Source of the DNA: Gammaproteobacteria bacterium
GTDB taxonomy: Bacteria > Pseudomonadota > Gammaproteobacteria > Ga0077536
Reading direction: 5' to 3'
NCBI GenBank assembly: GCA_963662545.2
Contig: CAXXLL010000002.1
Location: 960,001 to 1,024,000 of the forward strand
DNA: 64,000 nt
This document shows positions 21,351 to 37,670 of this stretch, one piece after another; the stretch's first letter is position 1, and each line of letters begins with the position of its first letter. Made by a program: the position numbers and the translations under genes. The notes under the pieces are model-generated. The model saw nothing but the letters and a program-made list of their open reading frames with translations. It did not search any database and was not told the DNA's origin.

Positions 21351-21396
21351 TACTATTTCTCCATTTGGTTATGGTCAATAGAAGCGGTACTTATTG

Positions 21397-21891: not shown

Positions 21892-21897
21892 TATTGA

Positions 21898-21947
21898 TGT
21901 CTAAAGGCGCCGCTGTTTGACGTCCGGGTTGATCCGGAGGTGAGGTG
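21898..21947 (-). repeat. Internally deleted attC remnant
   Basis: GCTGTTTGACGTCCGGGTTGATCCGGAGGTGAGGT resembles the right half of the local attC consensus. Confidence 0.6.
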
Positions 21948-21982
21948 TATATTTTTTCATTGAGCCCGCCGCGTTGTCTCAA

Positions 21983-22347
21983 TCATAAGGGATTCTTGTT
22001 GCGCCACGTCGGTATAAAAATCACGAATATGCGAAGAACAATGGCGATCAATGGGCACGCCACTAAAATTATGATGCTAAGAAAGACACGAGCGAGGTCA
22101 CTTCCATGCTGGAAACGTTCGTCTCGATCCGCTTGCCATGCTTTGTAGCAGTGTTTATGACCGTCGATTGGGGAAAACGCAAAATCAATAACGGTTTCGA
22201 GTGCTTTCCAATAGAGTTGAGCTCGGCGGGCGTTCACTGAGAAGAATCCTACGCGGGCGGAAATCGTTGCATCGGGGTGTCCGCCCGCAATAGCATTACC
22301 AAGTTGATCAATCGCAATCAGAATTGCGAGTGGCCAATTTTCGTACT
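21983..22347 (-). pseudogene. 5'-truncated hypothetical membrane protein (cassette)
   Basis: IAIDQLGNAIAGG..D.TISARVG; the 5' end is fused directly to an attC half-site. Confidence 0.65.
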
Positions 22348-22381
22348 GCTGTAACACGTCCGGTTGCTCTACAAGTTAGGC
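22348..22381 (-). repeat. attC half-site
   Basis: GCTGTAACACGTCCGGTTGCTCTACAAGTTAGGC matches the R''/L'' half of the attC family. Confidence 0.78.
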
Positions 22382-22424
22382 GGGCGTTGCATTTCAAACG
22401 TGCACTCAGCCGGCGTTCGTGTGC

Positions 22425-23165
22425 CTAAATACTCATAACGCCACGTTGTGGCTCAGGCCTGAAAAACGTCTTTGGTGCTATCGGGGCGGCAAGCTCCCGA
22501 AGCGCGTCCCGTTGTTTCGGAATTGGAGTACGAATTGAGATATCTTCGAATTCACGAAGCTTTGTAAAGCTTGGAAGATCCAATAGTCTGTTAACGAACG
22601 AAGCTGTTATTGGAAATTTGAACATATCCAGTTTTGTTCTGGCCAATGAGATATTGCGAAAAAACGAGGCAATCGCAATATCCGCTAAGGAAATCTCACC
22701 AAACAGAAAGCCGTGCTCCGGCAGCACGGATTCCAAATAGGTGAGTATTCTGGGGATATCTACTTCTAGCGTAGTCTTTAGTACGGTTGGGTCCTTTTCT
22801 TCGCCCCAAACAGATCGCCTTATGACGAGTTGATTAAAATACCGCCAAATAAAGACCTCGCCGATACGAGAATCTGCGTATTCTTCTAGCCACCTGGCTT
22901 TTGCACGCATTGTCGGGTCATTTGGATATAACGACGGCTCCGGATATCTATCTTCAAGGTACTCGCAAATGACCGTCGAATCCGGAATTGCCAATTCTCC
23001 ATCAATCAGCACGGGTATGCGCCGCACGGGGCTAAGCTTTGTGAATTCGTCATCCCCGTAAAAGGGCACGATCGGATCAATGTCGTAAGGCACGCCCTTA
23101 AGTTCCAAGCACACCAGTACCTTTCGAACATAAGGGGATAGATAAGAACCGATTATCGTCGCCAT
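22425..23165 (-). CDS. Glutathione S-transferase family protein (cassette)
   Basis: SPYVRKV, SPVRRIPVL, DSTVICEYL and SLADIA. Confidence 0.88.
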   Translation of the reverse strand: MATIIGSYLSPYVRKVLVCLELKGVPYDIDPIVPFYGDDEFTKLSPVRRIPVLIDGELAIPDSTVICEYLEDRYPEPSLYPNDPTMRAKARWLEEYADSRIGEVFIWRYFNQLVIRRSVWGEEKDPTVLKTTLEVDIPRILTYLESVLPEHGFLFGEISLADIAIASFFRNISLARTKLDMFKFPITASFVNRLLDLPSFTKLREFEDISIRTPIPKQRDALRELAAPIAPKTFFRPEPQRGVMSI

Positions 23166-23239
23166 TTGGAATTCCAGTCGTCTGGATCGTTAAGTGGATG
23201 TTGCACTTCTCTCGGATATTTACGTGAATGTTTCAAGTG

Positions 23240-23428
23240 TCATTTTGGTTCATCTACGCCTAGATCCCGAAATATCTTCCGAGCCAAATGATCGTTGATT
23301 TCTCGATGGCGTGGAACCGCGGAACGCCTATTGTGGGAGGGATTGTGCTACCAGGAATGGCGACCGCCTTCCCGTAGCAATTCGCAACCAGATGATTCGA
23401 GGTGTCGAATCAGATTGCGGCGCTTCAT
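23240..23428 (-). pseudogene. hicA: HicA toxin pseudogene
   Basis: MKRRNLIRHL...REGGRHSW*HNP...VPRHREI; TAG at 23348-23350. Confidence 0.85.
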
Positions 23429-23637
23429 ACGCCGATCTCAAGTTCCTCGTAGTCGTCCCCTGCGGCTGTAATCGCGTCCGAGCGATTAAATTCCAAAGCT
23501 TCGCGCAGGGTTACCTTCAACGACTTCACCAATTCCTCTCGAGTCGTTTCCTGGCAATTGACTCCGGGCACTTCTTGAACCCAGCCGATCCACCATCCGG
23601 CATCTTCCTTAATGACTGCTGTGTAGCTCGTATTCAT
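23425..23637 (-). CDS. hicB: HicB-like antitoxin
   Basis: YTAVIKEDAGWWIGWVQEVPGVNCQETTREEL; overlaps the hicA start. Confidence 0.85.
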   Translation of the reverse strand: MNTSYTAVIKEDAGWWIGWVQEVPGVNCQETTREELVKSLKVTLREALEFNRSDAITAAGDDYEELEIGV

Positions 23638-23667
23638 CCCAATAGTCTAGCTCACGATTCTTTTGTC

Positions 23668-23775
23668 ACCTAACGTTGGGATAACCTGCAGATTACAGCG
23701 CACTTTGGAGATGTGAGAATACCGGCACGGCGGAAAAGTGCGCTGTATGCTGGCAGGTTGATCCCGTTGTTAGGT
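23668..23775 (-). repeat. attC site (divergent family member)
   Basis: ACCTAAC...GGATAACC...GGTTGATCC...GTTAGGT with an internal stem. Confidence 0.88.
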
Positions 23776-23835
23776 GTATTTTTGATATTCTCTATTTCCT
23801 CTTAGTAACGATCGAAAGCTACGCCGCACAAATTA

Positions 23836-24072
23836 TCAATCCTCTGGTAAGGCGTCGAATTCCTTTTTTTTATTCTCGAACCATTCATTCATCGCGTCGG
23901 GCTTTTGCATAAGGTCTCGCATTTCCTTCATCGCTTTCAGATGGGCTTCATCTTCGCGTTCATACATTTCCATTCCATGTTGTTTGCTCATTTCGGCGAT
24001 TTCGTCGTAAGAGTTGGCTTGAAATTCCGTTTCGCATGCTCCGCCTAGTTGCCTGCAATTCATTGTTTTCAT
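23836..24072 (-). CDS. DUF1059-like small protein (cassette)
   Basis: MKTMNCRQLGGAC..EF.A...EI..MSKQHG; AAGGAGG RBS. Confidence 0.75.
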   Translation of the reverse strand: MKTMNCRQLGGACETEFQANSYDEIAEMSKQHGMEMYEREDEAHLKAMKEMRDLMQKPDAMNEWFENKKKEFDALPED

Positions 24073-24085
24073 TCTTCTGCCTCCT

Positions 24086-24172
24086 TAAGTTCAGCCGCGC
24101 TTGACGGCGGGTGACCGGAGCGGAAGCGCAGGGAGCTCGCGGTCAAGCGTCGGCTGCAACTTTTTGTTCGGT
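24086..24172 (-). repeat. attC site of a different family, lacking its R' box
   Basis: Minus strand ACCGAAC-AAAAA-GTTGCAGCCGACGCTTGAC...GTCAAGCGCGGCTGAACTT with no GTT core after it. Confidence 0.7.
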
Positions 24173-24196
24173 GAATGTTGCATTTCAGTCGTGAAT

Positions 24197-24472
24197 TCAG
24201 GTGCGTTTTTCGACGAGTTTGCCGGCTACATATTTGTGAAGCACGCTCGCCACAAGAGTTTGGTACGGAATGCCTTCTTGTAGAGCACGAGCTTGCAAAG
24301 CTCGGAGATCCCTCGATGAGAGGTGAATATTTATCCGCGTGTCTTTCTTGAACGTGGCTTGGGCATACTCTTTATGACATTCGATTTCCTTGCCGCTGCC
24401 TTTTGATTTTCTGAGCTTTCCTGCATCAAAAGCGTTAAGGATTTCCTTCTCTTTTTTATCGAGCTTACTCAT
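24197..24472 (-). CDS. CopG/RHH antitoxin
   Basis: KKDTRINIHLS..DL..LQARALQEGIPYQTL..SVLHKY. Confidence 0.85.
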   Translation of the reverse strand: MSKLDKKEKEILNAFDAGKLRKSKGSGKEIECHKEYAQATFKKDTRINIHLSSRDLRALQARALQEGIPYQTLVASVLHKYVAGKLVEKRT

Positions 24473-24648
24473 CTGAATTCCCAACATATTGTTTCGTTGC
24501 TTTACGACTCGGAATAATTGTCTTTAGGAAGATCTCATCTTCGTCTTCGATGAACGGAACCAGATACGCGTAGTCTTCGATAATTACAACGGAGATCTTC
24601 TGCCCCGGGTAGCTTCGCTGATTCGGGTGATTGAGGATCGCGACTTCG
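24465..24648 (-). pseudogene. 5'-truncated BrnT-like toxin
   Basis: HPNQ..YPGQ...YAYLVPF......FLKTIIPSRKATK C-terminal half only; fused to an attC half-site. Confidence 0.8.
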
Positions 24649-24696
24649 TTACAAAAAGCGAGCCTGTAAGCGGTCAGGTTGATCCGCTGGTTAGGT
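24649..24696 (-). repeat. attC half-site
   Basis: CTGTAAGCGGTCAGGTTGATCCGCTGGTTAGGT; the left half is deleted. Confidence 0.75.
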
Positions 24697-25080
24697 GTTC
24701 GTATCGCCATGGGTACGCACATAAGAAAAATACCAGAGAGCAGCGAGAAAAATGGCGACCATCGACAGAGTAGTTCCCCATATCATGGCGGGCATAAACC
24801 AAGCAGGGTCCGCTAATGCCTTATGCCATTTTAAACCGGAGCCCATTTGATCGCGAATGGCGGCGACGTTCGCAAGGTTTCGGTTTGTCCCAGTAATTAT
24901 AACTACGGATGAAATTGCATAGATCCAAACTACCGCTCGTGCTAATCCACTAGGAAGCGATTTTCCTGCAAAGTACCCGACAGCCAGTAGCGCCGAAGTT
25001 ACTGATATGAAATTCATAAAGTACGTCATGACAGCGCTCGTCTGCGCCAAAAACAGATCAGCTAACTCGTAATCACTCAT
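24691..25080 (-). CDS. Hypothetical membrane protein with about 3 TM segments (cassette)
   Basis: Three hydrophobic segments; stop codon lies inside the R'' box. Confidence 0.75.
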   Translation of the reverse strand: MSDYELADLFLAQTSAVMTYFMNFISVTSALLAVGYFAGKSLPSGLARAVVWIYAISSVVIITGTNRNLANVAAIRDQMGSGLKWHKALADPAWFMPAMIWGTTLSMVAIFLAALWYFSYVRTHGDTNT

Positions 25081-25094
25081 ACTTTTACTTGAAC

Positions 25095-25354
25095 ACCTAA
25101 CGAGGTTGTAGGAAAAGCCCCACAGACTGAAAATGTGCCAAATTCGGGGGTCTCGATACCATTACCCTAACCGAGATCGTCGCTTACAGAGCGTCGGACG
25201 AGGCCGAATTTCTGAGCGATTATTCGCAACGACTTATCCTACAACCTCAACGCTAGGATAACCGGCGTGTTACAGCAGGCTCCTTTGTGGCGAAAATGCG
25301 CAGGCGCCCCAAAGGAGCCTGCTGTAACACGTCCGGTTGATCCACTGGTTAGGT
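25095..25354 (-). repeat. attC site interrupted by a MITE
   Basis: ACCTAAC (25095-25101), then the 147-bp insert, then AACGCTAGGATAACC...GTTAGGT. Confidence 0.9.
25102..25248. mobile_element. 147-bp MITE
   Basis: 16-bp TIRs GAGGTTGTAGGA(A/T)AAG and a 3-bp AAC target duplication; no ORF. Confidence 0.88.
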
Positions 25355-25355
25355 T

Positions 25356-25649
25356 TCATTTTTGAGGCTTCCGCCAGTAGTTCGGCTCAAGATGAAGGTG
25401 AGCAACGGCAACAATGAGAATTTCTTCGTCAGTTACTTCGTAGATTAACCCGTATTTGAATCGGCGGGTCCTGCACCGGCGGGTGTTTTCGCTGAGCGGC
25501 GCCTAAGCAATCGGGTGTCGTTCTATCCGTTTTGTCGTAGCGCGTACTTCTTCTAGAAACTCTTGACCGAGACCGTCACGCTGATCATTTAGGTACTCAA
25601 TGGCATCTCGGAGTTCTGCGCGAGCCGGATCTAGAAAGCGAACTTTCAA
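25356..25649 (-). pseudogene. RelE/ParE-family toxin pseudogene
   Basis: MKVRFLDPARAEL...GLGQEF...HPIA*AP...RRFKYGLIY...VAVAH; TAG at 25503-25505. Confidence 0.87.
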
Positions 25650-25867
25650 GCGCCTTCCAGATTCGCAAACACTTCATCCGACGAATACGCTTGGATTTCG
25701 CCTGCACGGTAAGCGCGGAGTCGATCTTCCGCCTCCTTCGCCCACAATGCGTCAATGTTCGGGGCAGGTTTGTCGAAGCTGTTCAACAATTCCTCAACCA
25801 GGCCGACGCGCTCGTTAGGCGAAAGACCAAGCGCTTCTCGATAAAGCTTTTTTGCATTCTCAGTCAC
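25646..25867 (-). CDS. Addiction-module antitoxin component
   Basis: ALGLSPNER..LVEELL.S......IDALWAKEAEDR; coupled to the ParE-like gene. Confidence 0.83.
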   Translation of the reverse strand: MTENAKKLYREALGLSPNERVGLVEELLNSFDKPAPNIDALWAKEAEDRLRAYRAGEIQAYSSDEVFANLEGA

Positions 25868-25920
25868 AGGATTTCTCTTCCACGTCCGATAATATAAGTA
25901 TAGACCGGAGTCGAAATGAG

Positions 25921-25939
25921 ACCTAACAGTTAATTAGGG
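25921..25939 (-). other. attI-like or collapsed recombination site within the array
   Basis: ACCTAACAGTTA is identical to the 12 bp at the attI (36113-36124); no attC hairpin here. Confidence 0.6.
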
Positions 25940-26013
25940 AGTGTTGCACTTCACTTGGAAATCTAAGTGTCTCTACTTCGCAGCAAGGACCTTCGGACAG
26001 GGATACGACGCTC

Positions 26014-26622
26014 TCAGACAGATGCATTCTTAGTTTTGACTATCTGTGTTCCCATTAAACGATCGATGAGCCGAACAACCGGTTTGCGTAAAAACACGCC
26101 CACGATAATAGGCCCGACAAACGCGCCAAGCAGAAACCACAGGTTCGATCGAGCGTATTTGAGCGGATATATTTCGTTATTACGTACTCGATATTCAGAA
26201 AGCGATGACCAAGGCGTGTCTCCAACCATAAATACCTGGACGATCTGGCTTTCGTCGCTTTCAGGGAGTACTGAGATGGTCGCACTAGTCTCTCCTCGAC
26301 TCCAATTGCGGGAGGGCGGGTGCTCAGGCAATAAATACTGCACATTGCGGAAGTTCTCTTCGGCCAAATCGGCTCCATATCGATATACATGCGTATCGGA
26401 AGCTTCCTCACCATATTCGGCTATGAATGCGATGTACATCTGGGACGTTTCGTTCGGTTCAACGTCATCGAGGAACCACTTGGCGCTACTATAGTACGCC
26501 GTCCCCGGGCCTACACACGAGCCGATAAACAGCGCGGATAGCACGACGAGTTTTAGGCAGCCGGCAACGAATCGCTTTACGAACCCAATGACTTCTTCCG
26601 ACATTTCTTGCTTCTCAATCAC
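26014..26622 (-). CDS. Hypothetical protein with 2 TM segments (cassette)
   Basis: Hydrophobic N- and C-terminal segments around a soluble domain; low GC. Confidence 0.7.
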   Translation of the reverse strand: MIEKQEMSEEVIGFVKRFVAGCLKLVVLSALFIGSCVGPGTAYYSSAKWFLDDVEPNETSQMYIAFIAEYGEEASDTHVYRYGADLAEENFRNVQYLLPEHPPSRNWSRGETSATISVLPESDESQIVQVFMVGDTPWSSLSEYRVRNNEIYPLKYARSNLWFLLGAFVGPIIVGVFLRKPVVRLIDRLMGTQIVKTKNASV

Positions 26623-26661
26623 TATGTGCGTATCTGAGAGTTTGTCTGCCGGACACTGGAG

Positions 26662-27546
26662 TTACCCAAGAACCGTAGACACGTTCATGGGATTAGGTTG
26701 TAACTCGTAGTTATCGGGGCTGAGATAGCCGAGCGCCGAGTGCCGGCGTTGGCGGTTGTAGAAGATCTCGATGTATTCAAACAGGCCGGCACGGAGTTCA
26801 TCGACCGTGCGGTAGTTCTCCGGATAGATGAGTTCGACCTTCAGGCGGCTGAAGAAGGACTCCATGACGGCGTTGTCCCAGCAGTTCCCCTTGCGGCTCA
26901 TACTCGGTTGAATACCGGAGTCCGTCAATAGTTGTTGGTATTCGTTGCCGCGGTACTGCACGCCACGGTCGGAGTGCAGCAGCAGCCCTTCAGAGATATC
27001 CCGGCGAGACACCGCCATCGTCAGTGCATCGACGATGAGCGTTTCGCGCATGTGGGGCTCAAGTGTCCAGCCGACAATCTTGCGCGAATACAGGTCCAGC
27101 ACCGCAGCGAGATAAGCCCAGGTGCGACCGACCTTGATATAGGTAATGTCAGAGACCCATTTGCGATTCGGCCCGTCGGTGGTGAAGTTCCGGTCGAGCA
27201 GGTTGTCTTTGACCTGCGTCATCGATTCGACCCGCTTCTCGTAGCGGAAGCCTTTGCCGTTCAAGGCCCGCAACTGCAGCGAACGCAGCAATTTGGCCAC
27301 ATAATTTTTGCTGCACGGCACACCGTCTTCAACCAATTCCTTCGTCAGACGCGGCGCCCCATAACGCCGTTTGAAGCGGTAATACAGATAGCTCAGTACC
27401 TGCCGCATCTGCTCACGTCGCCTGGCCTGCTCACTCAGCGGCCGCTTCAGCCAGGCATAAAAGCCCGACCGCGACACCTCTAACACCCGACACATCAGCG
27501 TCACCGGATAGGCACCCCGGTTCTCTGCGATTAAGGCGTACTTCAC
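26662..27546 (-). CDS. IS3 transposase OrfB
   Basis: WVSDITY, HSDRGVQY and CWDNAVMESFF. Confidence 0.93.
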   Translation of the reverse strand: MKYALIAENRGAYPVTLMCRVLEVSRSGFYAWLKRPLSEQARRREQMRQVLSYLYYRFKRRYGAPRLTKELVEDGVPCSKNYVAKLLRSLQLRALNGKGFRYEKRVESMTQVKDNLLDRNFTTDGPNRKWVSDITYIKVGRTWAYLAAVLDLYSRKIVGWTLEPHMRETLIVDALTMAVSRRDISEGLLLHSDRGVQYRGNEYQQLLTDSGIQPSMSRKGNCWDNAVMESFFSRLKVELIYPENYRTVDELRAGLFEYIEIFYNRQRRHSALGYLSPDNYELQPNPMNVSTVLG

Positions 27547-27854
27547 TTGTCGGGGTTGGCAAAGTACGCCGTCGCTTTTTTTAGGAAATCTCGCTCCTGC
27601 TCGAGCTCCGCTACCTTCCTCTTCAGGCGACGGATCTCGGTTTTCTCTTCTTTCGAATAATCTGTGCCGTCCGCCAGCTTGAACTGCTTGTTCGACAGAT
27701 TGTTGAACTGGGCGCGCCAGTTGTAGATCTGACCGGGATGGAGCCCGAGTTCTTTCGCCACCTCGGTCGCCGTACGACCGGGTTGATCAGCTAGGCGAAC
27801 CGCTTCTTGACGGAACGATTCCGGATACGACTGCGTTTTCTTCTTTCTCGGCAT
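27543..27854 (-). CDS. IS3 transposase OrfA
   Basis: HTH; ERDFLKKATAYFA containing an A7G slippery site. Confidence 0.9.
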   Translation of the reverse strand: MPRKKKTQSYPESFRQEAVRLADQPGRTATEVAKELGLHPGQIYNWRAQFNNLSNKQFKLADGTDYSKEEKTEIRRLKRKVAELEQERDFLKKATAYFANPDK

Positions 27855-27921
27855 CGTGACACTTCCAATTGCATCTTAGTACGATGCATTAGGGTGTCTA
27901 CTTTTCGTGGGTAACTCGGGA

Positions 27922-28031
27922 ACCTAACGCAAAGTTAACCGGCGTGTTACAGCCAGCTCCTTTGGGGCGAAAATGCGGAGCCGCCCCAAAGGAGCTGGCT
28001 GTAACACGTCCGGTTCAACGCCTTGTTAGAG
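27922..28031 (-). repeat. attC site
   Basis: 110 bp, ACCTAAC...GTTAGAG, family consensus. Confidence 0.93.
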
Positions 28032-28263
28032 GGCGCTTATATCGCTCGACGTACGAATCGAGAAGACGCCGAATCATTTTCTGATAAGGCGTGTTGCGTC
28101 TCTCGGCCTCGCCTTTGAAGAAATCGACGCTCGATTTACTTAACGAGATCGTGACCTTAACGGTCTCATCTCGGAAAGCAAGTTCGTCTGGCGAGGGCAA
28201 GAAGTCCTCGATGACTTCGATGTCCCCTATAGGTTCATCGGTGTACTTTATTTTCGCGCTCAT
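28015..28263 (-). CDS. CopG/BrnA-like antitoxin
   Basis: DFLPSPDEL...TVKVTISLSK.SVDFFK......PYQKMIRRLLD. Confidence 0.85.
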   Translation of the reverse strand: MSAKIKYTDEPIGDIEVIEDFLPSPDELAFRDETVKVTISLSKSSVDFFKGEAERRNTPYQKMIRRLLDSYVERYKRPLTRR

Positions 28264-28528
28264 AGACTCTCTTACCTTTTCTCCAATATCCGGCGCCAAA
28301 TATTCGGATTACGTTTCGGCGATAGGTGAACCTAACCGTCAAAATCCCTTCACCGGCCTCGCCGAAACAGTAATAACGCTCTTCGGTTTCGCTGCTATGC
28401 GCTAAATCCTTGGCGATGACTCGTTTCGGATCGGCGAATGCGTATTGAGCTTCGGCAAAGAAAATACGGTGTTTCGCTTGATTCTCGGCGTCCTTTTCCG
28501 AGTCCCACTCAAAGCTTTCCTTGCTCAT
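28235..28528 (-). CDS. brnT: BrnT-family toxin
   Basis: FEWDSEK...N..KH.I.F..A...F.DP...EER...ILTVRFTYR...IRI. Confidence 0.9.
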   Translation of the reverse strand: MSKESFEWDSEKDAENQAKHRIFFAEAQYAFADPKRVIAKDLAHSSETEERYYCFGEAGEGILTVRFTYRRNVIRIFGAGYWRKGKRVYERENKVHR

Positions 28529-28534
28529 AGGGTA

Positions 28535-28566
28535 AGTATAGAACTGATATGGCTATATCGCCATAT
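28535..28566 (-). promoter_or_regulatory. TA cassette promoter and operator
   Basis: -10 TATACT 6 nt upstream of the ATG; inverted repeat ATATGGC-N6-GCCATAT. Confidence 0.6.
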
Positions 28567-28599
28567 GAATATGTGGCGCAGAGATGTCTGGTTTCAGCC

Positions 28600-28709
28600 C
28601 TCTAACGCTAGGATAACCTGCGCGTTACAGCGCGCTTCTTTGGAGCGAAAATGCGAAGCCGTTTCAAAGAAGCGCGCTGTAACACGTCAGGTTGATCCTT
28701 TTGTTAGGC
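28600..28709 (-). repeat. attC site
   Basis: 110 bp, CTCTAAC...GTTAGGC. Confidence 0.93.
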
Positions 28710-28719
28710 GGCGCGTACA

Positions 28720-29238
28720 TTAATCTTTTCGTGTGTCCAGAATAGGCATCATATCGATCAGCGAAGGTAGGTCTGGTTCTTCACGAAGATGCCTCTCCAA
28801 TTCGAGCCCAACTTCCTTATCTACTACTTGGATTACTTGAGGCCAGACTTTTCTTCCACCGGGGGTCCTTATAAAGGCTCCCACATATGCCAGCCATGTA
28901 GTGTAGTCCACCTCACTCAATAACCCTTGTTTATGCAAGCTTAGTACGTTCTGTAGTTGTACGACATGCTCTATGAGTAGAAATGTAAATCGTGTCTTTT
29001 CTATCCGATCGAGTTCATCGAAGGATGACAGTCCGCGAGCGTGTACATCAGCCACTTCGCTATTTGTTATCGTAGGATTAACGATACGGTCTCGCGCCCC
29101 GTCCAGCATATTTTGTACCGAAGCCGCTTGAGTAGCACGAGTATTTCCCCGTACTTGAATGGCCAGATACACAACGGATATGACGACTGCTACAGCACTG
29201 ATAATTTCGCCAATTGCCGCCGCTGAATCCAAATTCAT
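28720..29238 (-). CDS. Uncharacterised cassette protein, family X
   Basis: N-terminal TM helix AAIGEIISAVAVVISVVYLAIQVR; EKTRF; TPGGRKVW. Confidence 0.8.
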   Translation of the reverse strand: MNLDSAAAIGEIISAVAVVISVVYLAIQVRGNTRATQAASVQNMLDGARDRIVNPTITNSEVADVHARGLSSFDELDRIEKTRFTFLLIEHVVQLQNVLSLHKQGLLSEVDYTTWLAYVGAFIRTPGGRKVWPQVIQVVDKEVGLELERHLREEPDLPSLIDMMPILDTRKD

Positions 29239-29256
29239 TCCGTGTCTTCCCGTGCC

Positions 29257-29366
29257 GCCTAACGCCAGGATAACCTGCGTGTTACAGCGCGCTTCTTTCG
29301 GGCGAAAATGCGTAGCCGACCTAAAGAAGCGCGCTGTAACACGTCAGGTTGATCCGTTTGTTAGGT
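29257..29366 (-). repeat. attC site
   Basis: 110 bp, GCCTAAC...GTTAGGT. Confidence 0.93.
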
Positions 29367-29375
29367 GAATGTTGC

Positions 29376-30697
29376 GGTACGGACCGGGTAGATAGGTAAC
29401 ATTATAGTCAAGGTACATGGGTGACAGATCAATGGTATTAGGTTCCTCAAAGGAGGAGTCCGATGCCCTGGAGAGAAACGTCACCAATGAACGAAAAAAC
29501 GCAATTCATCGCAGACTATCTGCGCGACCTGTTGACAGTTACCGAGCTGTGCGAACATTACGGCATCAGTCGCAAGACTGGCTACAAATGGATTGATCGG
29601 TATCTAAGCGAAGGTCCGGCGGGTTTAGAGGAACGCACACGGCGGCCTAGAACTTGCCCGCATAAAACGCCGGCGCGGCTCGAGCGCCTGATCATCGATG
29701 CGCGACAACGTCATCCGACTTGGGGCGCTCGTAAATTGCGGACGTTTCTATCGCGGAAGCACCCGCGAGAGCCGTGGCCAACACGGACAACCATTCATGA
29801 CATCCTAATCCGTGAAGGATTCATCCGGACACCGCGGCGCTCACGCAAACTCGGGCATCCGGGAAAACCTGAAACCCGAATGAATGCACCCAACCAAACC
29901 TGGGGCGCCGACTTCAAAGGGCATTTCAAGACCGAAGACGGGCGGTATTGTTACCCGTTGACCGTCACCGATGGCTTTAGTCGATACCTCATCGGATGCC
30001 AGTCATTACTCACGACCGCCGTTGAACCATCGAAGGCGGTGTTCACCCGCTTATTCAAAGAATACGGACTGCCAGAACGCATCCGTACCGACAACGGCGT
30101 CCCCTTCGCGACGAACACGCTCGGTCGATTATCAACGCTGTCTGCCTGGTGGATCAGGCTTGGTATTTATCCCGAGCTCATCGAACCCGGAAAGCCTCAA
30201 CAAAATGGCCGACACGAACGGATGCACCGAACCTTAAAGGCGGAGACGACTCGACCTCCGGCCGGGGACTATCGCGCGCAACAGAAACGATTTAATCGGT
30301 TCCAGATTGAATTCAATGAAGAACGCCCTCATGAAGCGCTCGACATGTTCACACCTGCCGACTTCTACGAATTTTCTGCCAAAGAAATGCCTAGCAAAAT
30401 CCCGCCGCTCGAATATCCTGACCGTTTCATCAAGCGCTTCGTCAGTGCCAACGGTGGCATCCGATGGCATTCCACCCATGTGCCTGTCTCAATCGCGTGT
30501 GCCGGTGAGTACATAGGATTAGAGGAAATCGACTGTGGTGTTTGGAACGTCTATTTCGGAACGCTTAAGCTCGGCCGAATGATTGAAAAATACAATCGGA
30601 TCGAAGATGCTTACGGCCGACTAAAACGACATTATCGATAACAAAAGTGTTACCCATCTACCTTGGCACTTTTGTTACCTTTCTCCCGGTCCGCTCA
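29376..30697 (+). mobile_element. IS481-family insertion sequence
   Basis: IRs CGGACCGGG(T)AGA.AGGTAACA with internal repeats; no TSD seen. Confidence 0.87.
29463..30641 (+). CDS. IS481-family transposase
   Basis: MPWRE start, SRKTGYKW, WGADFKG, TDNGVPF and QNGRHERMHRTLK. Confidence 0.93.
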   Translation: MPWRETSPMNEKTQFIADYLRDLLTVTELCEHYGISRKTGYKWIDRYLSEGPAGLEERTRRPRTCPHKTPARLERLIIDARQRHPTWGARKLRTFLSRKHPREPWPTRTTIHDILIREGFIRTPRRSRKLGHPGKPETRMNAPNQTWGADFKGHFKTEDGRYCYPLTVTDGFSRYLIGCQSLLTTAVEPSKAVFTRLFKEYGLPERIRTDNGVPFATNTLGRLSTLSAWWIRLGIYPELIEPGKPQQNGRHERMHRTLKAETTRPPAGDYRAQQKRFNRFQIEFNEERPHEALDMFTPADFYEFSAKEMPSKIPPLEYPDRFIKRFVSANGGIRWHSTHVPVSIACAGEYIGLEEIDCGVWNVYFGTLKLGRMIEKYNRIEDAYGRLKRHYR

Positions 30698-30926
30698 TTT
30701 GCATCCGGTTCGCATAGTCACGACCAGATGTTGGTGGGGGTAGCGGCTTACCATCCTGTTCGTAGAGTTCAATAGCTTCCTCTACGATTCGACACAATTC
30801 TTCAAAGACTTCTTTTTCGTTTGCTCCGTGACAACCGCCCAACACAAGTCCAGGGGCACTGCCGACATAACACTCGTCTTCGTCAGACCACTCAACAATT
30901 TTCGCGTAACGAGCACTTCCTTTCAT
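30675..30926 (-). CDS. hicB: HicB-like antitoxin (C-terminal residues replaced by IS481 sequence)
   Basis: VEWSDEDECYVG..PGL..GGCHG...GKPLPPP; the tail SGPGER comes from the IS end. Confidence 0.82.
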   Translation of the reverse strand: MKGSARYAKIVEWSDEDECYVGSAPGLVLGGCHGANEKEVFEELCRIVEEAIELYEQDGKPLPPPTSGRDYANRMQMSGPGER

Positions 30927-31120
30927 TTCTTTATCTCCGCGAGCACCTTTTGGACTGCTCGAATCTGATATTCTTTTGCGTCGTCTCCAAGTTTGCCCGA
31001 AATCGTTATGGGATTCGATATATTCGGATGCACAAAGTTTCGATGACTTCCCTTTCCGCCTCGATTCTTAAAGCCTCCGCGCTCCAAGTCGGCAATTAGC
31101 TCTCGGATCTTGGGAGGCAT
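30923..31120 (-). CDS. hicA: HicA toxin
   Basis: LERGGF....GKGSHRNFVHP.....TISG..GDDAK.YQ. Confidence 0.88.
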   Translation of the reverse strand: MPPKIRELIADLERGGFKNRGGKGSHRNFVHPNISNPITISGKLGDDAKEYQIRAVQKVLAEIKK

Positions 31121-31130
31121 TCTGTGTGGC

Positions 31131-31240
31131 GCCTAACGCTAGGATAACCTGCGTGTTACAGCGCGCTTATTTGGAGCGAAAATGCGAAGCCGGTTCAAAG
31201 AAGCGCGCTGTAACACGTCCGGTTGATCCATTGGTTAGGT
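31131..31240 (-). repeat. attC site
   Basis: 110 bp, family consensus. Confidence 0.93.
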
Positions 31241-31699
31241 GGCTGTTTTCTCAAGGTGTTGGTCAACAAATTGCGTAAAGGCATCGCTGAATCTCCATTT
31301 CTGTGCCGACCACCACTTCCGTGCGCCAATGCCTTCGTACGTCTTTAGCGCGCTTTCACGGTAGCCCTCCCATTCTTGACGGGGAAACTTGCCGCTCGAA
31401 GCGGTATAAAACATATATTGAACGGATCGCGACCATGCCCACATGGCGATGTTGAATCTCGCGCGCTCTGCTTCGCTCAATTCCTCATCCGCGATACCCC
31501 TTTCCCACAGTAGCGGAAGATCTGGCTCCGCCATTAAAGAGCAGAGAAAATCTCTCGAAAGCTGTATAGAAAACGAGAAATTCGCGTCGTTCTGCGCGGC
31601 CGTGTTTCGCCTTAGTTCTACGACGAGATATAGGAGGGAAATAACGACGCAGATTACGCCGGCCCCTTCTACCAATACGCCGATGGCTTCCCAATTCAT
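31235..31699 (-). CDS. Uncharacterised cassette protein, family X
   Basis: MNWEAIG..VE.AGV..VVISLLYL..ELRRNT; ERARF; GARKWW. Confidence 0.8.
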   Translation of the reverse strand: MNWEAIGVLVEGAGVICVVISLLYLVVELRRNTAAQNDANFSFSIQLSRDFLCSLMAEPDLPLLWERGIADEELSEAERARFNIAMWAWSRSVQYMFYTASSGKFPRQEWEGYRESALKTYEGIGARKWWSAQKWRFSDAFTQFVDQHLEKTAT

Positions 31700-31714
31700 C
31701 GATTTACTCTGGCC

Positions 31715-31824
31715 ACCTAACGCCAGGATAACCTGCGTGTTACAGCGCGCTTTTTTTGGGCGAAAATGCGGAGCCGACCTAAAGAAGCGCGCTGTAGCAC
31801 GTCAGTTTGATCCGTTTGTTAGGT
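31715..31824 (-). repeat. attC site
   Basis: 110 bp, family consensus. Confidence 0.92.
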
Positions 31825-32115
31825 TGCGGGTTCATTTCGACGCCGATAACTTGTTTCTGGTTTGATTTCGTCAAGAAGGATACCAGAGCGAAACCTCCTT
31901 ACAATCGAATAAGATTTCGGCTTTTTAGGGGCACGAATTGCCTCGCGATCCGAAGACACCATAGCGGCAGTGAATTCCCCCGACTACCTTCCCGGTAGTC
32001 TCGTCGTATTGAACTTAGCACCATAAAATTGCGGCGTGGACCGGAGCCGAATTCATTGGCCTTTTGCCATACTGCGGCGCTTCCGGTGGCCTGTTCGCAA
32101 TGATTTTCTTTCGCA
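31825..32115 (-). other. ORF-less gene cassette (~290 bp)
   Basis: Bounded by two intact attCs with matching ends GTTAGGTTGCG / CGCAACCTAAC; no credible ORF. Confidence 0.75.
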
Positions 32116-32225
32116 ACCTAACGCTAGGATAACCGGCGTGTTACAGCCAGCTCATTTGGGGCGAAAATGCGAAGCCGCCCCAAATGAGCTGGCTGTAACA
32201 CGTCCGGTTGATCCATTTGTTAGGC
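32116..32225 (-). repeat. attC site
   Basis: 110 bp, family consensus. Confidence 0.93.
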
Positions 32226-32267
32226 GGCAGTTTTTCGAACCAATTTCGACCTCTACTTTCATTCCGG

Positions 32268-32783
32268 TTATTCACATCTAAGCCAGTCCAAATCTTCATT
32301 CGCTGGTGTTATATCCAGGTTCGTTTCGTTCAGGCGTCCTTCTATATGAATCGTAAGCGTTTCGGGCGGCAAGTGCTTCCAAGCTTCCCACCATTGACGC
32401 CCTCCAGGTGAAAGCACGAAAGATAAGTACAGACTCTCACTTTTTCTGAAAAGCGCCTCATCTTGGAGCATGCCGCTTTTGTACAGCGTCCAAACTTGAT
32501 AATAGCCGTTCGTAAGCAACTGCATTTTGGAATGAAACACTGCTTTCCCGTTTCGATCTAGTTCGCCGAATCGGCTTAGCCCTTCTCTAAAATTCTCGGC
32601 AGCTTTTTCGTCAGACGTCATAGCAGCATAGGCATCTACGAACTCCTTCACAGCCTCTTTCAACGCCTGCGCCGACTGTTGCCGGTTGTTTTGCCTGATC
32701 TGTACTGACAGATAGCCAAGAGTCGCGACTACAGCTACGACACCAATAATTTCCGCAATAGCGCCGACAGCTTCCCAGTTCAT
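32268..32783 (-). CDS. Uncharacterised cassette protein, family X
   Basis: MNWEAVGAIAEIIGVVAVVATLGYLSVQIRQN; SPGGRQWW. Confidence 0.8.
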   Translation of the reverse strand: MNWEAVGAIAEIIGVVAVVATLGYLSVQIRQNNRQQSAQALKEAVKEFVDAYAAMTSDEKAAENFREGLSRFGELDRNGKAVFHSKMQLLTNGYYQVWTLYKSGMLQDEALFRKSESLYLSFVLSPGGRQWWEAWKHLPPETLTIHIEGRLNETNLDITPANEDLDWLRCE

Positions 32784-32800
32784 AAAAAGTTTCTACTGCC

Positions 32801-32911
32801 GCCTAACGCTAGGATAACCGACGTGTTGCAGCTGGTTTGTTTTCGACGAAAATGCGCAGCACGGCTAAAACAAGCCAGCTGCAACACGGCCGGTTGATCC
32901 ACTGGTTAGGC
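32801..32911 (-). repeat. attC site
   Basis: 111 bp, family consensus with compensatory changes. Confidence 0.92.
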
Positions 32912-33442
32912 GTCATTTTCCTTTGTCCAGTGTTGCGGTTGGTAAAACGGAACGGCCTCAATGATCGACGGCGCATCGGGACCGAGTTCGCTGAGTTTTT
33001 TGTCGAACAGCCCCACGAATCTTGGGTCATATACGGTTTTTACGACTTTCCACCACGAGCGAACGCCGGATGGGCTTAACATCATTATGGTCATCGCCTC
33101 ACGCGACGAATACGTGACATCGTCTATGGCTCCGCGATTCCACAACAGCCAGCAAGTTTCGCACCACCTGATGTAGGCGTGTAGGTATAGATGCGCCCTA
33201 GCTTGTTCTTGGGCGGACAATGATTCCCAATCGCTCGCGGCTCGGACAAAAACGCGTGTTAGTTCTTCATCATCGCGAAGATCTTGGACAAGATCTTTTT
33301 CGGTGTTGTTAATCTCGATAATCGCATCGCCATGCAACTGGTTCGTGTGTTGACGTATCTGGGTCGCTAGGTATAACAGTGTGACGACTGTTGCTACCGC
33401 TGCGAGGATTTCTCCAACGCTGCCGAGGTCTTGAATGGTCAT
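32906..33442 (-). CDS. Uncharacterised cassette protein, family X
   Basis: MTIQDLGSVGEILAAVATVVTLLYLATQIRQ; EQARA; PSGVRSWW. Confidence 0.8.
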   Translation of the reverse strand: MTIQDLGSVGEILAAVATVVTLLYLATQIRQHTNQLHGDAIIEINNTEKDLVQDLRDDEELTRVFVRAASDWESLSAQEQARAHLYLHAYIRWCETCWLLWNRGAIDDVTYSSREAMTIMMLSPSGVRSWWKVVKTVYDPRFVGLFDKKLSELGPDAPSIIEAVPFYQPQHWTKENDA

Positions 33443-33465
33443 AGGACGAATGTAATCGTAATGAC

Positions 33466-33575
33466 GCCTAACGCTAGGATAACCTGCGTGTTACAGCGTG
33501 CTTCTTTTTAGCGAAAATGCGAAGCTGCTGAAAAGAATCACGCTGTAACACGTCAGGTTGATCCATTTGTTAGGT
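33466..33575 (-). repeat. attC site
   Basis: 110 bp, family consensus. Confidence 0.93.
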
Positions 33576-33710
33576 GGCGGGGCGATTAACGAAGCCTGGG
33601 CCATATTTCTTTTGCATTTGACAGAGGTGGACCCCGGCGGTTGGACAGAGAACAGGAGCTGATAAGTGGAATCTTCTAGCTTAGGAATCTCGTGAGAGAA
33701 GGAGCAGAAG

Positions 33711-34001
33711 ATGACCCGAAGAAAGCGACGTAATCACGCATCGGCGTTCAAGGCCAAGGTCGCTCTGGCGGCGGTGAAGGGCGAACGCACACGGGCCGAG
33801 CTGGCCGAGCAGTTCGACGTTCATCCTAATCAGAGCCAGGACTGGAAGAAGCGCCTGGTGGAAGGCGCCGAGGACGTGTTTGGCGTGAACGCTGTGGAGG
33901 CCCAGCACAACGAAAAGGGGGTAGAGAAGCTCCACGCCAAGATCGGGCAGTTGGCGATGGAGAACGATTTTTTATCCACAGTGCTCGGGCGCGACCGATG
34001 A
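33711..34001 (+). CDS. IS3 transposase OrfA
   Basis: RRNHASAFKAKVALAA; KIGQLAMENDFL. Confidence 0.9.
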   Translation: MTRRKRRNHASAFKAKVALAAVKGERTRAELAEQFDVHPNQSQDWKKRLVEGAEDVFGVNAVEAQHNEKGVEKLHAKIGQLAMENDFLSTVLGRDR

Positions 34002-34843
34002 GCGAGCGCCGGCAACAAATTCACACAGCGCATAAGGTGCCCAGGACGCGGCGCTGCGAATTGCTCGAGGTGGCACGCTCGAGCGCGTACTACCGTCCCG
34101 AGCCGGTCAGCGAGACAGATCTGATGCTGATGCGGCTGATCGACGAGATCCACCTGCAGTGGCCGTTTTACGGCCGTCGGCGGATCCGCGACGAACTGGA
34201 AGATCGCGGCCATGTGGTCAACCGCAAGCGGGTCCAACGTCTGATGCGTCAGATGGATTTGAGGGCTTTGTATCCACGACGCCGAACGAGCCAGTCCGGG
34301 AAGGGACACAAGATCTACCCGTACCTGCTCAGGGATCTGGCTATCGAACGGCCGAACCAGGTCTGGGCGAGCGACATCTGCTACCTCCCGATGGCCAGAG
34401 GGTTCATGTACCTGGTGGCCATCATGGACTGGCATTCGCGCCGGGTGCTGTCGTGGCGCGTGTCGAACACGTTGGATACGGACTTCTGTATCGAGGCGCT
34501 GGAAGAGGCCCTGCAGCGTTTCGGCGCGCCGGAAATCTTCAACACCGATCAGGGGTCCCAGTTTACCTCCGAGGCGTTCACCGGCGTACTCAAAGACCAG
34601 GGCATCAAGATCAGCATGGATGGCAAGGGGCGCTGGGTGGACAACGTGTTCGTTGAACGGCTCTGGCGCAGCGTGAAATATGAGGACGTATACTTACGCG
34701 CCTATGCAACGCCAACCGAGCTTCGTGTCGGATTGGACCGGTACTTCAAGTTCTACAACACTAAGCGCCGTCACAGCGCGCTGGACCGACGCACCCCGGA
34801 TGCGGTGTACTTCGATTTGGCTGGCCGCACGTTGGCAGCCTGA
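33998..34843 (+). CDS. IS3 transposase OrfB
   Basis: WASDICY, NTDQGSQFTS and DNVFVERLWRSVKYE. Confidence 0.93.
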   Translation: MSERRQQIHTAHKVPRTRRCELLEVARSSAYYRPEPVSETDLMLMRLIDEIHLQWPFYGRRRIRDELEDRGHVVNRKRVQRLMRQMDLRALYPRRRTSQSGKGHKIYPYLLRDLAIERPNQVWASDICYLPMARGFMYLVAIMDWHSRRVLSWRVSNTLDTDFCIEALEEALQRFGAPEIFNTDQGSQFTSEAFTGVLKDQGIKISMDGKGRWVDNVFVERLWRSVKYEDVYLRAYATPTELRVGLDRYFKFYNTKRRHSALDRRTPDAVYFDLAGRTLAA

Positions 34844-34994
34844 AACCTAAGGAAGATTTCACTTACGGCACTGTCCAAGTTTCGGGGTCCATTTCTGACA
34901 GCGTGTTTAGTTGCACTTTACTTGGAAATCTAAGCAGCATATTGCACATCACACATCATTATCACAGTGAAAGTAGCAACTGTTGTAACTCTAT

Positions 34995-35408: not shown

Positions 35409-35439
35409 TGGTCACCCTTGGTCTGAAATATTTTATGCC

Positions 35440-36062: not shown

Positions 36063-36069
36063 CGAATGG

Positions 36070-36266: not shown

Positions 36267-37670
36267 ATGGGCACTTCGCTTTCGCATCCTGGCGTTCCCG
36301 GATTCTGGGACCGCTTCATCGTAATTGCCGGCTCGCTGGAGCTTACTCGGAAACAGCTGCGCTGGCACGTACGGCGTGCCGAGCACTATTTGCGGGCGTA
36401 TCCCGACAAGCTCGTGACCGAGCACCAGGCCACCGATGTGAGCGCGTACCTGTCGGAATTAGGCAGAAGAACCGGGATAGAGCCATGGCAGTTCGTCCAG
36501 AGCGTGGATGCTATACGGACCCTGTTCGAGACAGTGGGTGATCTTGGTTGGCCGGGTAGGTTCGACTGGGACTATTGGAAGGGCAGTGCACGTTAGCTCG
36601 AGCCCTCGCACGCGACCATCGCCCGCGAGGCTGACGGGCCCGCGCGGCCCATATTGGCGCGGGTCGAGGACCGGGCCGAGCGAGGGTGGATGGACAATAT
36701 CCGTGCGGCCCATGGCGAGGTGATTCGTCGTCTGATCACGCAGATCCGCCGGCGTGCCTATTCGATCAGGACCGAACAGGCCTATGAGCTCTGGTTGTGC
36801 CGCTTCATCCGCTTTACCGGGACTGACGATCCCGCAGTGCTCGGTGGGGGTGAGGTCATTCGCTTTCTGGAGTACCTTGCCGTCGAACGCCGCGTCGCGG
36901 TGAGCACGCAGAACCAGGCGTTCAATGCACTGGTATTCTTTTACAACAATGTGCTCGAACTCCCACTCGGTGAACTCGGCGGTTTTAAGCGGGCGAAGCG
37001 CCCGCGTCGATTGCCCGTGGTGCTGACCCGCGAAGAGGTGCGCAGACTGCTTGCTGGAATCGACGGCCTGCATGGCCTGATGGCGCGTCTTATCTATGGC
37101 ACGGGCATGCGTCTGATGGAATGCATCCGCCTGCGAGTCCAGGACATCGATTTCGATTACCGGCAAATCGTGATCCGGAATGCGAAGGGTGCAAAGGACC
37201 GGCTCGTCCCGCTGCCCGGCGTTTTGATTGAAACGATGCGTAAGCATCTCGCGGACGTCCGGGCGACGCATCTCGAAGATCTCGACCGGGGCCTCGGCGT
37301 GGTCTACCTGCCCGATGCACTGGACCGCAAGTATCCCAACGCCGCGCGCGAATGGATATGGCAGTACGCGTTTCCGAGTGGGCGCCTTTCCGTCGACCCG
37401 CGTTCGGGCCGAACCCGCCGCCATCATATTCACGAGAACAGCCTGCAGAAGGCGGTCAAGCGTGCGGCGCAGGCTGCAGCCGTCAGCAAGAAGGTCAGCA
37501 CGCATACGCTGCGCCACTCGTTTGCGACGCATCTGCTCGAATCGGGCTACGACATCCGCACGGTGCAGGAGTTGCTAGGCCACGCGGACGTATCAACGAC
37601 GATGATTTACACCCACGTACTGAACCGTGGTGGCAAAGGAGTGCAAAGCCCGCTGGATAAGCTCGGGTGA
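36267..37670 (+). pseudogene. intI: Long-form integron integrase with an in-frame TAG at 36594-36596 (the downstream core 36654-37670 is an open ORF)
   Basis: [15 protein letters not shown], IntI-specific insertion [48 protein letters not shown]; both ORFs are in the same frame. Confidence 0.92.

Follow-up and report, generated by a model that had tools for sequence, protein, structure and literature searches.

The conserved 25-mer that recurs beside attC sites in the window (the whole stretch of 64,000 nucleotides of DNA analysed here) was shown by sequence comparison to be the right terminal inverted repeat (IRR) of an IS30-family element resident in the same genome. We consider it quite probable that the window copies are lone IRRs of this element, which would have its insertion hot spot at the outer border of the R'' box of attC. 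The motif would then be a transposon footprint, and the integron site gains no new component from it. The hairpin of attC ends with the pair CCTAAC/GTTAGG, beyond which the motif is located, i.e. outside the R''-L''-L'-R' arrangement, as the earlier note had rightly stated. The motif is ordinary in kind, a transposon end, which removes the idea of a hidden fifth attC box. Among the three origins suggested in that note, the end of a second recombination system came closest because the motif is indeed an end, although that of a transposon. A footprint of cassette formation found no direct support: no attC flanked by both repeats was found in this genome, and related genera keep cassettes and attC without the motif.

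The IS30-family element and its derivatives in this genome

The element is approximately 1090 bp (1.09 kb) long and occurs in five copies, with the motif at one end and its inverted partner at the other; its two terminal 25-mers share 19 of 25 bases (counted by hand). Its single transposase of 315 aa contains the Pfam domains HTH_38 (7.8e-13) and rve (6.2e-9), both above the cut-offs, and plasmid relatives retrieved by tblastn are annotated as IS30 family, ISVa6 or ISVvu6. The same two ends bound a 179-bp MITE present in three copies, and eight left and eight right ends belonging to full elements or MITEs were found in the genome. The earlier note had itself reckoned with the end of a known IS, and this is what we encountered, with full copies and MITEs in the same genome.

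The placement of the complete copies shows site-specific insertion beside R''. In all five, the left repeat stands 3 bp past the R'' box of an attC, the insertion point being 3 bp past GTTAGG; it is always this repeat that adjoins R'', and the transposase gene runs antisense to the cassette. The left repeat directly follows an R''-type box in one of the three MITE copies. A paralogous pair of sites, C3:908422 (empty) and C3:357437 (filled), displays a 3-bp duplication (TGG/TGG), and perfect target duplication is absent in four of the five full copies, which are flanked by unlike triplets.

Lone right repeats in the window and across the genome

The cassette array of the window reads leftward on the minus strand, its direction being fixed by the integron-type tyrosine recombinase gene intI at 36654..37670 (+ strand; Pfam Phage_int_SAM_4 and Phage_integrase). 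The canonical main-family attC at 29258..29366, detected with an nhmmer profile, presents its bottom strand as the + strand, with R' left and R'' right. It folds with -41.9 kcal/mol (z = -9.9), and both single-base bulges are located on the 3' arm, i.e. the + strand arm adjoining the motif. Together with the minus-strand cassette ORFs, these features confirm the strand assignment made before. No Rfam family reached its gathering score within 21000-37500.

All six copies of the motif lie on the + strand, starting at 22386, 23200, 24177, 25943, 29371 and 34910. They are present as originally claimed, also with regard to the distance from the first base of the R''-type box, which is 11, 11, 11, 10 and 11 nt for the first five (boxes starting at 22375, 23189, 24166, 25933 and 29360). 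The fixed distance is explained if lone IRRs occupy the IS30 hot spot, and IS30 insertion at this spot likewise accounts for the confirmed observation that the motif follows unrelated genes and adjoins two attC families. The exact core GTTGCAYTTC matches four times in the window compared to a mean of 0.33 in 100 shuffles, none of which reached four. Enrichment was not seen when one mismatch was permitted (10 window matches vs 8.08 expected; 28 of 100 shuffles reached 10). The similarity among lone copies ends sharply at ...CTAAG, as is to be expected if the outer end is the true transposon terminus. The inner half of the motif is better conserved than the outer half.

With regard to the attC partners, the earlier picture needs correction in that three of them are remnants. 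Lone IRR no. 1 (22386..22410, +) points with its inner end toward the R'' box 22375-22381 of a truncated attC (22347-22380) and reached 16.8 bits with a matrix built from foreign IS30 IRRs only. No. 2 (23200..23224, +) adjoins the R''-like box 23189-23195 of an attC stub (~23181-23195). Right after it, positions 23225-23239 hold the outer part of an earlier lone IRR with an internal deletion; alignment with the paralogous cassette at C2:2108165 places the new lone IRR of this hicBA cassette between R'' and the older one, which the paralogue keeps whole. No. 3 (24177..24201, +; 20.9 bits with the foreign matrix) adjoins the R'' box 24166-24172 of an attC at 24087-24172, which belongs to a second hairpin family (hairpin 24087-24162) and is devoid of a matching R' box. 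The minus-strand ORF 24197-24487 has its stop codon within the outer end of this IRR. No. 4 (25943..25967, +), beside a collapsed attC (25922-25939), is identical to the IRR of the 179-bp MITE in 25 of 25 positions and scored only 10.9 bits with the foreign matrix.

The last two copies are interrupted by other insertion sequences. From no. 5 only the first five nucleotides, GTTGC, stand at 29371..29375 (+); then an IS481-family element begins (29376..30697, +; transposase 29463-30641; Pfam LZ_Tnp_IS481, rve and HTH_32), 9 nt past the R'' box 29360-29366. The degenerate rest of this IRR probably lies after the element, at ~30698-30720. In the whole genome, six copies of the IS481-family element stand 8-9 nt past an R'' box. 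No. 6 (34910..34934, +), in 24 of 25 positions identical to the copy at 25943 as had been noted, represents a long form in which R'', a spacer, a unit of about 50 nt termed 'd' and the IRR follow each other. Here, the spacer and the left part of 'd' (33576..33618, +) are situated between R'' (33569-33575) and the IRR, and 'd' is split by an IS3-family element (33619..34900, +, ends read from the sequence; orfA 33711-34001, orfB 33998-34843; Pfam HTH_Tnp_1, rve and HTH_21), its right part being 34901-34909. Seven copies of 'd' were seen, and the left part of this unit is similar to subterminal sequence of the IS30 element, some 45 nt inward from the left repeat. A derivation of 'd' as an IS481-derived MITE was rejected, as IS481 copies stand left of intact 'd' units.

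When up to seven mismatches were allowed, the genome yielded 36 matches to the 25-mer, of which 27 were judged family and nine unrelated from their flanking sequence. The lone copies are all of the IRR type and in a single orientation; some are decayed, some internally deleted and some cut, with three kinds of IS involved. The left repeat matches, with up to six mismatches, eight times in the genome, always within full elements or MITEs. Among 53 attC loci with an R'' end, a lone IRR follows directly in ten (one of them cut) and behind a 'd' unit in four, a full IS in five and an IS481 element in four more, while 30 show none of these elements or are unclear; this tally is a hand reading of the table. 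The absence of any such element from 30 loci is again consistent with a motif outside the attC model. With 23 of 53 attC flanks bearing IS30- or IS481-derived DNA, transposons are hence a major shaper of this sedentary cassette array, and such DNA may block or redirect cassette excision. The assignment was also recovered with foreign sequences: a matrix of 32 IRRs, all from other genomes and none from this one, found 14 matches of at least 16 bits in this genome vs four with the reversed matrix, and eight of these matches are lone copies neighbouring an R''-type box, a 'd' unit or the IS, including those at 24177 and 22386. An IS copy followed by a second IRR was observed at C3:358557/358587 and C3:1934666/1934640.

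Orthologous cassettes in two other genera have the site empty and the motif is absent. In one pair, the empty sequence GGTTAGG-CGG-CAAATTC stands against GTTAGG-CGA-[27 nt]-CGG-CAAATTC, in the other GGTCAGG-CGC-CGGACAC against GTTAGG-TGC-[26 nt]-CGT-CGGTTTT. This comparison of aligned cassettes shows that the lone copies are insertions relative to their orthologues. The triplets flanking them agree in about 1.6 of 3 positions over some 17 copies (own count), which is no better than their shared Y-G-N make-up predicts and therefore says little on target duplication. Moreover, wherever an empty or older site is known (three cases), the left triplet is off by one base. Hence, a simple history of insertion with duplication followed by deletion is not proven.

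Origin of the lone copies and rival explanations

In the preferred route, lone IRRs would result from IS30 transposition that is one-ended or stays incomplete, or from a deletion initiated by the transposase, in each case at the hot spot. With the break at the left terminus, about 27 bp shielded by the transposase at the right end would survive, leaving the inner end toward R'' and the outer end, the transposon terminus, against the cassette ORF. Further insertions at the same spot would shift older relics outward, and the relics and the short spacer before them would then be targeted by the IS30 element and the IS481-family element. The transposase probably continues to bind these lone copies. 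The strict polarity and constant breakpoints of the lone right ends point to a regular, undescribed side reaction of copy-out-paste-in transposition. For IS30, the available part of the literature source describes insertions, dimers and deletions from the outer edge of the repeat, and lone repeats are not among the pathways given there (PMC9333248).

The most serious rival assumes that IS30 mobilised a larger segment carrying an attC and that the lone IRR marks the right end of this segment. The left repeat of a full IS or MITE would form one boundary of such a segment and a surrogate right end the other; landing at the hot spot beside R'', the segment would supply the ORF of a resident cassette with a new attC. 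The model behind it is the one-ended mobilisation known from ISEcp1-type elements, in which a true end together with a surrogate end can move adjacent DNA; this concerns another IS family, and no such event is shown here. We regard this explanation as unlikely; if true, it would amount to transposase-driven attC delivery or swapping and thus offer a concrete mechanism for an unsolved step of cassette genesis. It would fit with the attC lying on the inside of every lone IRR and with the sharp outer boundary as true transposon terminus. In the three informative comparisons, the left triplet was never faithful to the target triplet, the right one matched in two, and in two the attC beside the lone IRR was unlike that of the ortholog or paralogue. 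The IS plus second IRR pairs at C3:358557/358587 and C3:1934666/1934640 could serve as ends. However, no attC in this genome is flanked by both repeats, all eight left repeats belong to a full IS or MITE, and nothing similar to the left repeat stands within 70 nt beyond R' in any of 61 attC loci (read by eye). The attC mismatch is also not specific to cassettes with a lone IRR: an orthologous pair without any has an ORF flank 85% identical and attCs 71% identical (rank 19 of 47), so that attC-ORF co-inheritance does not separate the rival readings. Furthermore, a separate origin would be required for each of several lone-IRR sequence types.

That the motif is a selected functional site beside attC, be it a transposase landing pad or decoy, an integrase accessory site or a 3' RNA element, appears very improbable. 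The motif does occur at about a quarter of the attC flanks (14/53) with position and polarity kept and the inner half better conserved, and insertions of the IS481-family and IS30 elements cluster at it. Against selection speak the decay, internal deletion and cutting of copies by three IS kinds, their absence from orthologous cassettes in related genera and from the 30 loci mentioned above; within the region searched no Rfam family was found, and neither a structure nor a partner of the motif turned up. A descent of the copies from homologous 3' untranslated regions of one ancestral cassette, or as extension of one attC family, is hardly credible: the attCs of this genome form one close family, whose flanks could be copied along, but the similarity stops exactly at the transposon terminus, the copies adjoin two attC families and attC stubs, and both the matrix from other phyla, which finds the copies, and the orthologues devoid of them contradict it. 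An integrase-made junction between attC and a secondary site at the GTT of GTTGCAC, on either strand, was rejected, as it predicts an R' box or no R'' box beside the motif, where a full GTTAGGY plus 4 nt stands; a CRISPR repeat, a dif/Xer site, a promoter and a terminator, considered from the sequence only, were dropped on finding the full IS.

Relatives and other elements that target attC

The insertion of the IS30-family element beside R'' has its counterpart in relatives from many phyla. The left repeat is present in 52 of 59 foreign loci examined; a GTT precedes this repeat at a distance of exactly 12 nt in 34 of the 48 distinct foreign copies, with the flank consensus CTTGTTAGGCGGCGC. Sixteen foreign loci fold as attC-like hairpins with the ends CCTAAC...GTTAGG. 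In a cassette array of V. vulnificus, all seven copies of ISVvu6 have the same placement, and the attC-edge IS30 clade spans Verrucomicrobia, Gemmatimonadota, Actinomycetes and Vibrio. An excess of lone copies was not seen in two Vibrio records (15 IRR matches for 14 transposase places, and 7 for 7), and three related genomes contain one lone copy among 52 attC loci. Therefore, the abundance of lone IRRs may be peculiar to this lineage. A search of 40 related genomes for R'' plus motif returned three single matches outside this genome, which is the level of the control pattern. For annotation, the 25-mers provide a cheap marker of past IS30 insertions; masking them is advisable before any search of attC flanks for signals of cassette formation.

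The element resembles E. coli IS30, ISVa6 and ISVvu6 in the single transposase of about 315 aa with one HTH and a DDE (rve) domain, the element size of about 1.05-1.1 kb, the terminal inverted repeats of about 25 bp and the strong preference for defined hot spots, and perhaps also in a short target duplication. As a difference, insertion here is directed to the outer border of R'' in attC, in one fixed orientation, and this hot spot carries many lone right repeats, relics of a kind that we did not find described. According to the accessible portion of PMC9333248, IS30 moves by a copy-out-paste-in mechanism with reactive repeat-repeat junctions and duplicates 2 bp of its target, compared to 3 bp here, as seen in one filled/empty pair. 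MITEs and solo terminal repeats are non-coding derivatives with transposase-binding ends, of which the 179-bp MITE is a standard example; the lone copies differ in that only a single end is retained, invariably the right one, with constant breakpoints and at a single type of site.

Elements of the IS1111-attC group possess a DEDD transposase, are not known to bear terminal inverted repeats at their tips and insert inside attC. In contrast, the element found here encodes a DDE/rve enzyme, is bounded by terminal repeats of 25 bp and inserts on the outer side of R'', at a distance of 3 bp; HTH_38 and rve were the only Pfam domains of its transposase, and thus no DEDD (IS110-type) signature was found. 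The available parts of two reports present this group of the IS110/IS1111 family as insertion sequences homing to the attC sites of cassette arrays in fixed orientation (PMC11089894, PMC12444791). Group IIC-attC introns are another mobile element lineage targeting attC, as stated in the accessible part of PMC3001079; here, neither an intron RNA nor a reverse transcriptase is involved, and 21000-37500 gave no Rfam match. In the openly searchable papers, the IS1111 group and the group IIC introns are the only elements named as hunting attC. Within the openly accessible literature, no report of IS30 elements directed at these sites turned up. We lean towards the view that an IS30 clade spread over many phyla and homing to the R'' edge constitutes a third, undescribed class of attC-hunting mobile element, which we judge far more likely than the delivery of attC sites by IS30-mobilised segments.

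Identity of the conserved motif beside attC

Within the window (C2:960001-1024000), a tyrosine recombinase gene (36654-37670, plus strand) with Phage_int_SAM_4 and Phage_integrase domains lies to the right of a cassette array that extends down to approximately 22340 and in which every cassette ORF is on the minus strand. When folded, the attC at 29258-29366 forms an almost perfect hairpin (-41.9 kcal/mol, z = -9.9) with CCTAAC/GTTAGG as closing boxes and two single-base bulges. Because both bulges map to the 3' arm of the plus strand, the plus strand represents the bottom strand and its GTTAGGY the R'' end, with which the ORF direction is consistent. Relative to R'', the conserved motif lies towards the interior of the cassette, between attC and the 3' end of the ORF. 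With an nhmmer profile made from the attC of the window itself, 61 non-overlapping attC loci in about ten arrays were detected in the genome.

Some features of the array should be mentioned separately. Upstream of the integrase ORF 36654-37670 and in frame with it, a 124-aa ORF without Pfam match (36222-36596) ends at a TAG (36597-36599); this could reflect a stop-broken N-terminal extension, a case of read-through or a separate gene. The attC at 25922-25939 has collapsed to CCTAA-7 nt-TTAGG and the one at 23181-23195 is reduced to a stub, hence the hicBA-like and GST cassettes now form one fused, immobile unit; the collapsed site is similar to the attI-side junction at 36117-36137. A second IS3-family element (26657-27919, minus-strand ORFs 26662-27546 and 27543-27854) leaves 3 nt between its end and the R' box of the following attC (27923-28029).

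All six motif sites claimed in the earlier note were found in the window. Five begin 10-11 nt past the start of an R''-type box and the sixth follows an IS3 insertion; among the partners there are three attC remnants and one member of a second hairpin family that has no matching R' box. The exact motif core occurs four times in the window compared to 0.33 expected, a number reached in none of 100 shuffles, while one-mismatch cores are not enriched there (10 matches versus 8.08 expected). The observation itself is real. The proposed meaning as a new attC-associated element has to be replaced by that of a transposon end, an outcome which the earlier note had itself named as a refutation of its proposal.

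In the genome, 36 places match the 25-mer with up to seven mismatches, 27 of which were judged from their flanks to be true family members. Eight of these 27 are not at an attC flank as such and terminate repeated sequences, whose alignment revealed an element of 1.09 kb that is present five times, in four near-identical copies and one approximately 75% variant. It begins with the inverted motif, ends with the motif and has a sole ORF of 315 aa with HTH_38 and rve domains; plasmid relatives of about 51% identity are annotated as IS30-like ISVa6 and ISVvu6. The same ends are found in a 179-bp non-coding derivative (MITE, three copies), whose right end has the same sequence as the window copy at 25943. 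As it ends both the 1.09-kb element and the MITE, the motif is the right terminal inverted repeat (IRR) of an IS30-family element, with ...CTAAG as transposon terminus and the GTTGCAC end directed inward.

Insertion at the R'' edge of attC

All five full IS30 copies in the genome show the same arrangement, i.e. GTTAGG, three bases and then the left repeat, and the comparison of paralogous cassettes revealed an empty site (C3:908422) and its filled counterpart (C3:357437), where TGG is duplicated. One of the MITE copies is placed likewise, beside a second-family attC. Furthermore, we analyzed 80 loci with relatives of 27-66% identity (L009-L088) from Verrucomicrobiota, Gemmatimonadota, Gammaproteobacteria, Acidobacteriota, Actinomycetota and others. 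The left repeat was identifiable in 52 of the 59 foreign loci examined. Among 48 distinct upstream flanks (consensus CTTGTTAGGCGGCGC), 34 have GTT exactly 12 nt upstream of the repeat core, i.e. the left repeat 5 nt past R'', and 18 contain a strict GTTRRRY box. At 16 foreign loci the upstream 56-137 nt fold as hairpins with CCTAAC-type and GTTAGG-type closing boxes. Moreover, a Vibrio vulnificus record (NZ_CP016323.1) represents a cassette array with DUF3265 ORFs, in which seven of seven ISVvu6 left repeats are found 5 nt past an R'' box and the transposase is antisense to the cassettes. Judging from these foreign loci and the V. vulnificus array, homing to the R'' edge of attC appears to be a property of a widespread IS30 clade, across phyla. 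In V. campbellii NZ_CP050465.1, which has nine same-strand copies within 50 kb, one ISVa6 copy is without attC at its left, and its right repeat is followed after 8 nt by the R' end of a Vibrio attC.

A second IS family, IS481, is also position-specific and homes to these few bases beyond R''. The window copy (29376-30697, LZ_Tnp_IS481) starts 9 nt past R'', and including it six copies in the genome are located 8-9 nt past an R'' box (C2:1167979, C2:2113790, C3:1722078, C3:1917898 and C3:1927674). Eight right ends of this family were found in all, and those of the six copies adjoin either a lone IRR, i.e. one without left partner, or an approximately 50-nt segment called the 'd' unit. This unit occurs between R'' and a lone repeat in at least seven sites, for example at C2:1372530-1372586 and at 33576-33618 plus 34901-34909 of the window, where it is divided by an IS3-family element (33619-34900) ahead of the sixth motif copy. 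An origin of the 'd' unit from IS481 was rejected, since IS481 copies are found on the left of intact 'd' units. The left part of 'd' is similar to a subterminal stretch of the IS30 element instead, and 'd' together with the IRR may be either a small MITE or an IS30 relic longer than the IRR alone. At C3:1949437, a lone repeat by R'' is cut after approximately 11 nt by a multicopy IS (at least eight identical copies), which targets and duplicates CTAG.

Lone right ends and their origin

In every window copy of the IRR, 4-5 nt separate R'' from the inner end, and a partner repeat is lacking. Searching the genome for the left repeat (up to six mismatches) returned eight places, all in full or MITE copies, and no left-repeat-like sequence was found within 70 nt beyond R' at any of the 61 attC loci in the genome. 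Every lone copy encountered is a right end, with GCACTTC... in place of GCACTTA..., and their orientation is uniform. Among 53 attC loci with a profile match reaching the R'' end, sorted by hand, the lone IRR directly follows R'' at ten (one cut by IS481) and stands behind a 'd' unit at four, while five have a full IS30 element and four further ones an IS481-family element at the R'' flank; 30 show none of these or are unclear. Further lone copies adjoin attC stubs or second-family sites, which are missed by the profile (window 23200, 24177 and 25943; C2:2108165, C2:744863; C3:1945129, C3:2546203).

Three comparisons together indicate that the lone copies very probably derive from IS30 transposition at this hot spot. 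First, a scoring matrix derived solely from 32 distinct right ends of other genomes gave 14 matches at 16 bits or more versus four with the reversed matrix, and ten versus one at 18 bits; of the 14, eight are lone copies adjoining an R''-type box, a 'd' unit or the IS, one is the right repeat belonging to the variant IS copy, and five cases are unclear. Second, in two further genera of the same family the orthologous cassettes have an empty site, GGTTAGG-CGG-CAAATTC (G006) versus GTTAGG-CGA-[27 nt]-CGG-CAAATTC here, and GGTCAGG-CGC-CGGACAC (G023) versus GTTAGG-TGC-[26 nt]-CGT-CGGTTTT. Third, compared to its 94% paralogue at C2:2108165, the window hicBA cassette has gained a lone copy, placed between R'' and an older one that has since lost 17 internal bases; these stacked copies fit repeated hits at one spot.

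Regarding their origin, we favour a side reaction of transposition. On the outside, lone copies end at the true terminus; on the inside, their boundary never departs by more than about 2 nt from the repeat start. The other breakpoint adjoins the R''-adjacent triplet, and right ends are the sole survivors. In a one-ended or aborted event, the transposase would break the DNA at the left terminus, and the broken end would then be joined to DNA immediately internal to the right repeat to which transposase is bound; such a route is not described for IS30 in the accessible part of PMC9333248. In a rather improbable alternative, a larger segment with its own attC would have been mobilised, and the lone repeat would mark its end. 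The left triplet, one base off in three of three informative comparisons, and unlike attCs in two of the three would suit such a segment, but unlike attCs are also seen in an orthologous pair without lone copy (ORF flank 85%, attC 71% identical), and no attC bounded by both repeats exists in the genome. A simple history of insertion with duplication and later deletion is counted against by the same left triplets and by an agreement of the flanking triplets no better than predicted from their common Y-G-N make-up. Random deletion would not yield such fixed boundaries and polarity.

As a separate observation, the orthologous cassette ORFs at C3:1943950-1944200 and L114 (G006) and at C3:1722709 and L117 (same-genus G001) are 77-85% identical, with homology from immediately past R'', and have quite unlike attCs, in one pair of a different hairpin family. 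This attC replacement is not explained by integrase crossover at R' alone.

Distribution and other attC-targeting elements

The attC family occurs in seven of 41 related genomes searched, this genome counted. Among 52 attC loci from fetched stretches of three related genomes, one lone copy and one 'd'-like unit were found in G001 and one left repeat adjoining R'' in G006. No convincing match to the R''-plus-motif pattern was obtained in the 40 other related genomes, and two Vibrio records showed no excess of lone ends. The high number of lone ends may thus be a trait of this lineage.

As a by-product, our analysis points to an IS30 clade homing to the attC R'' edge across phyla and leaving polar footprints. 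In the open-access literature searched, as far as its text was accessible, no prior description of attC-homing IS30 elements was found, and the attC hunters named there are the IS1111 group and group IIC introns (PMC11089894, PMC12444791). Beside these two, the attC-homing IS30 clade deserves the attention of specialists.
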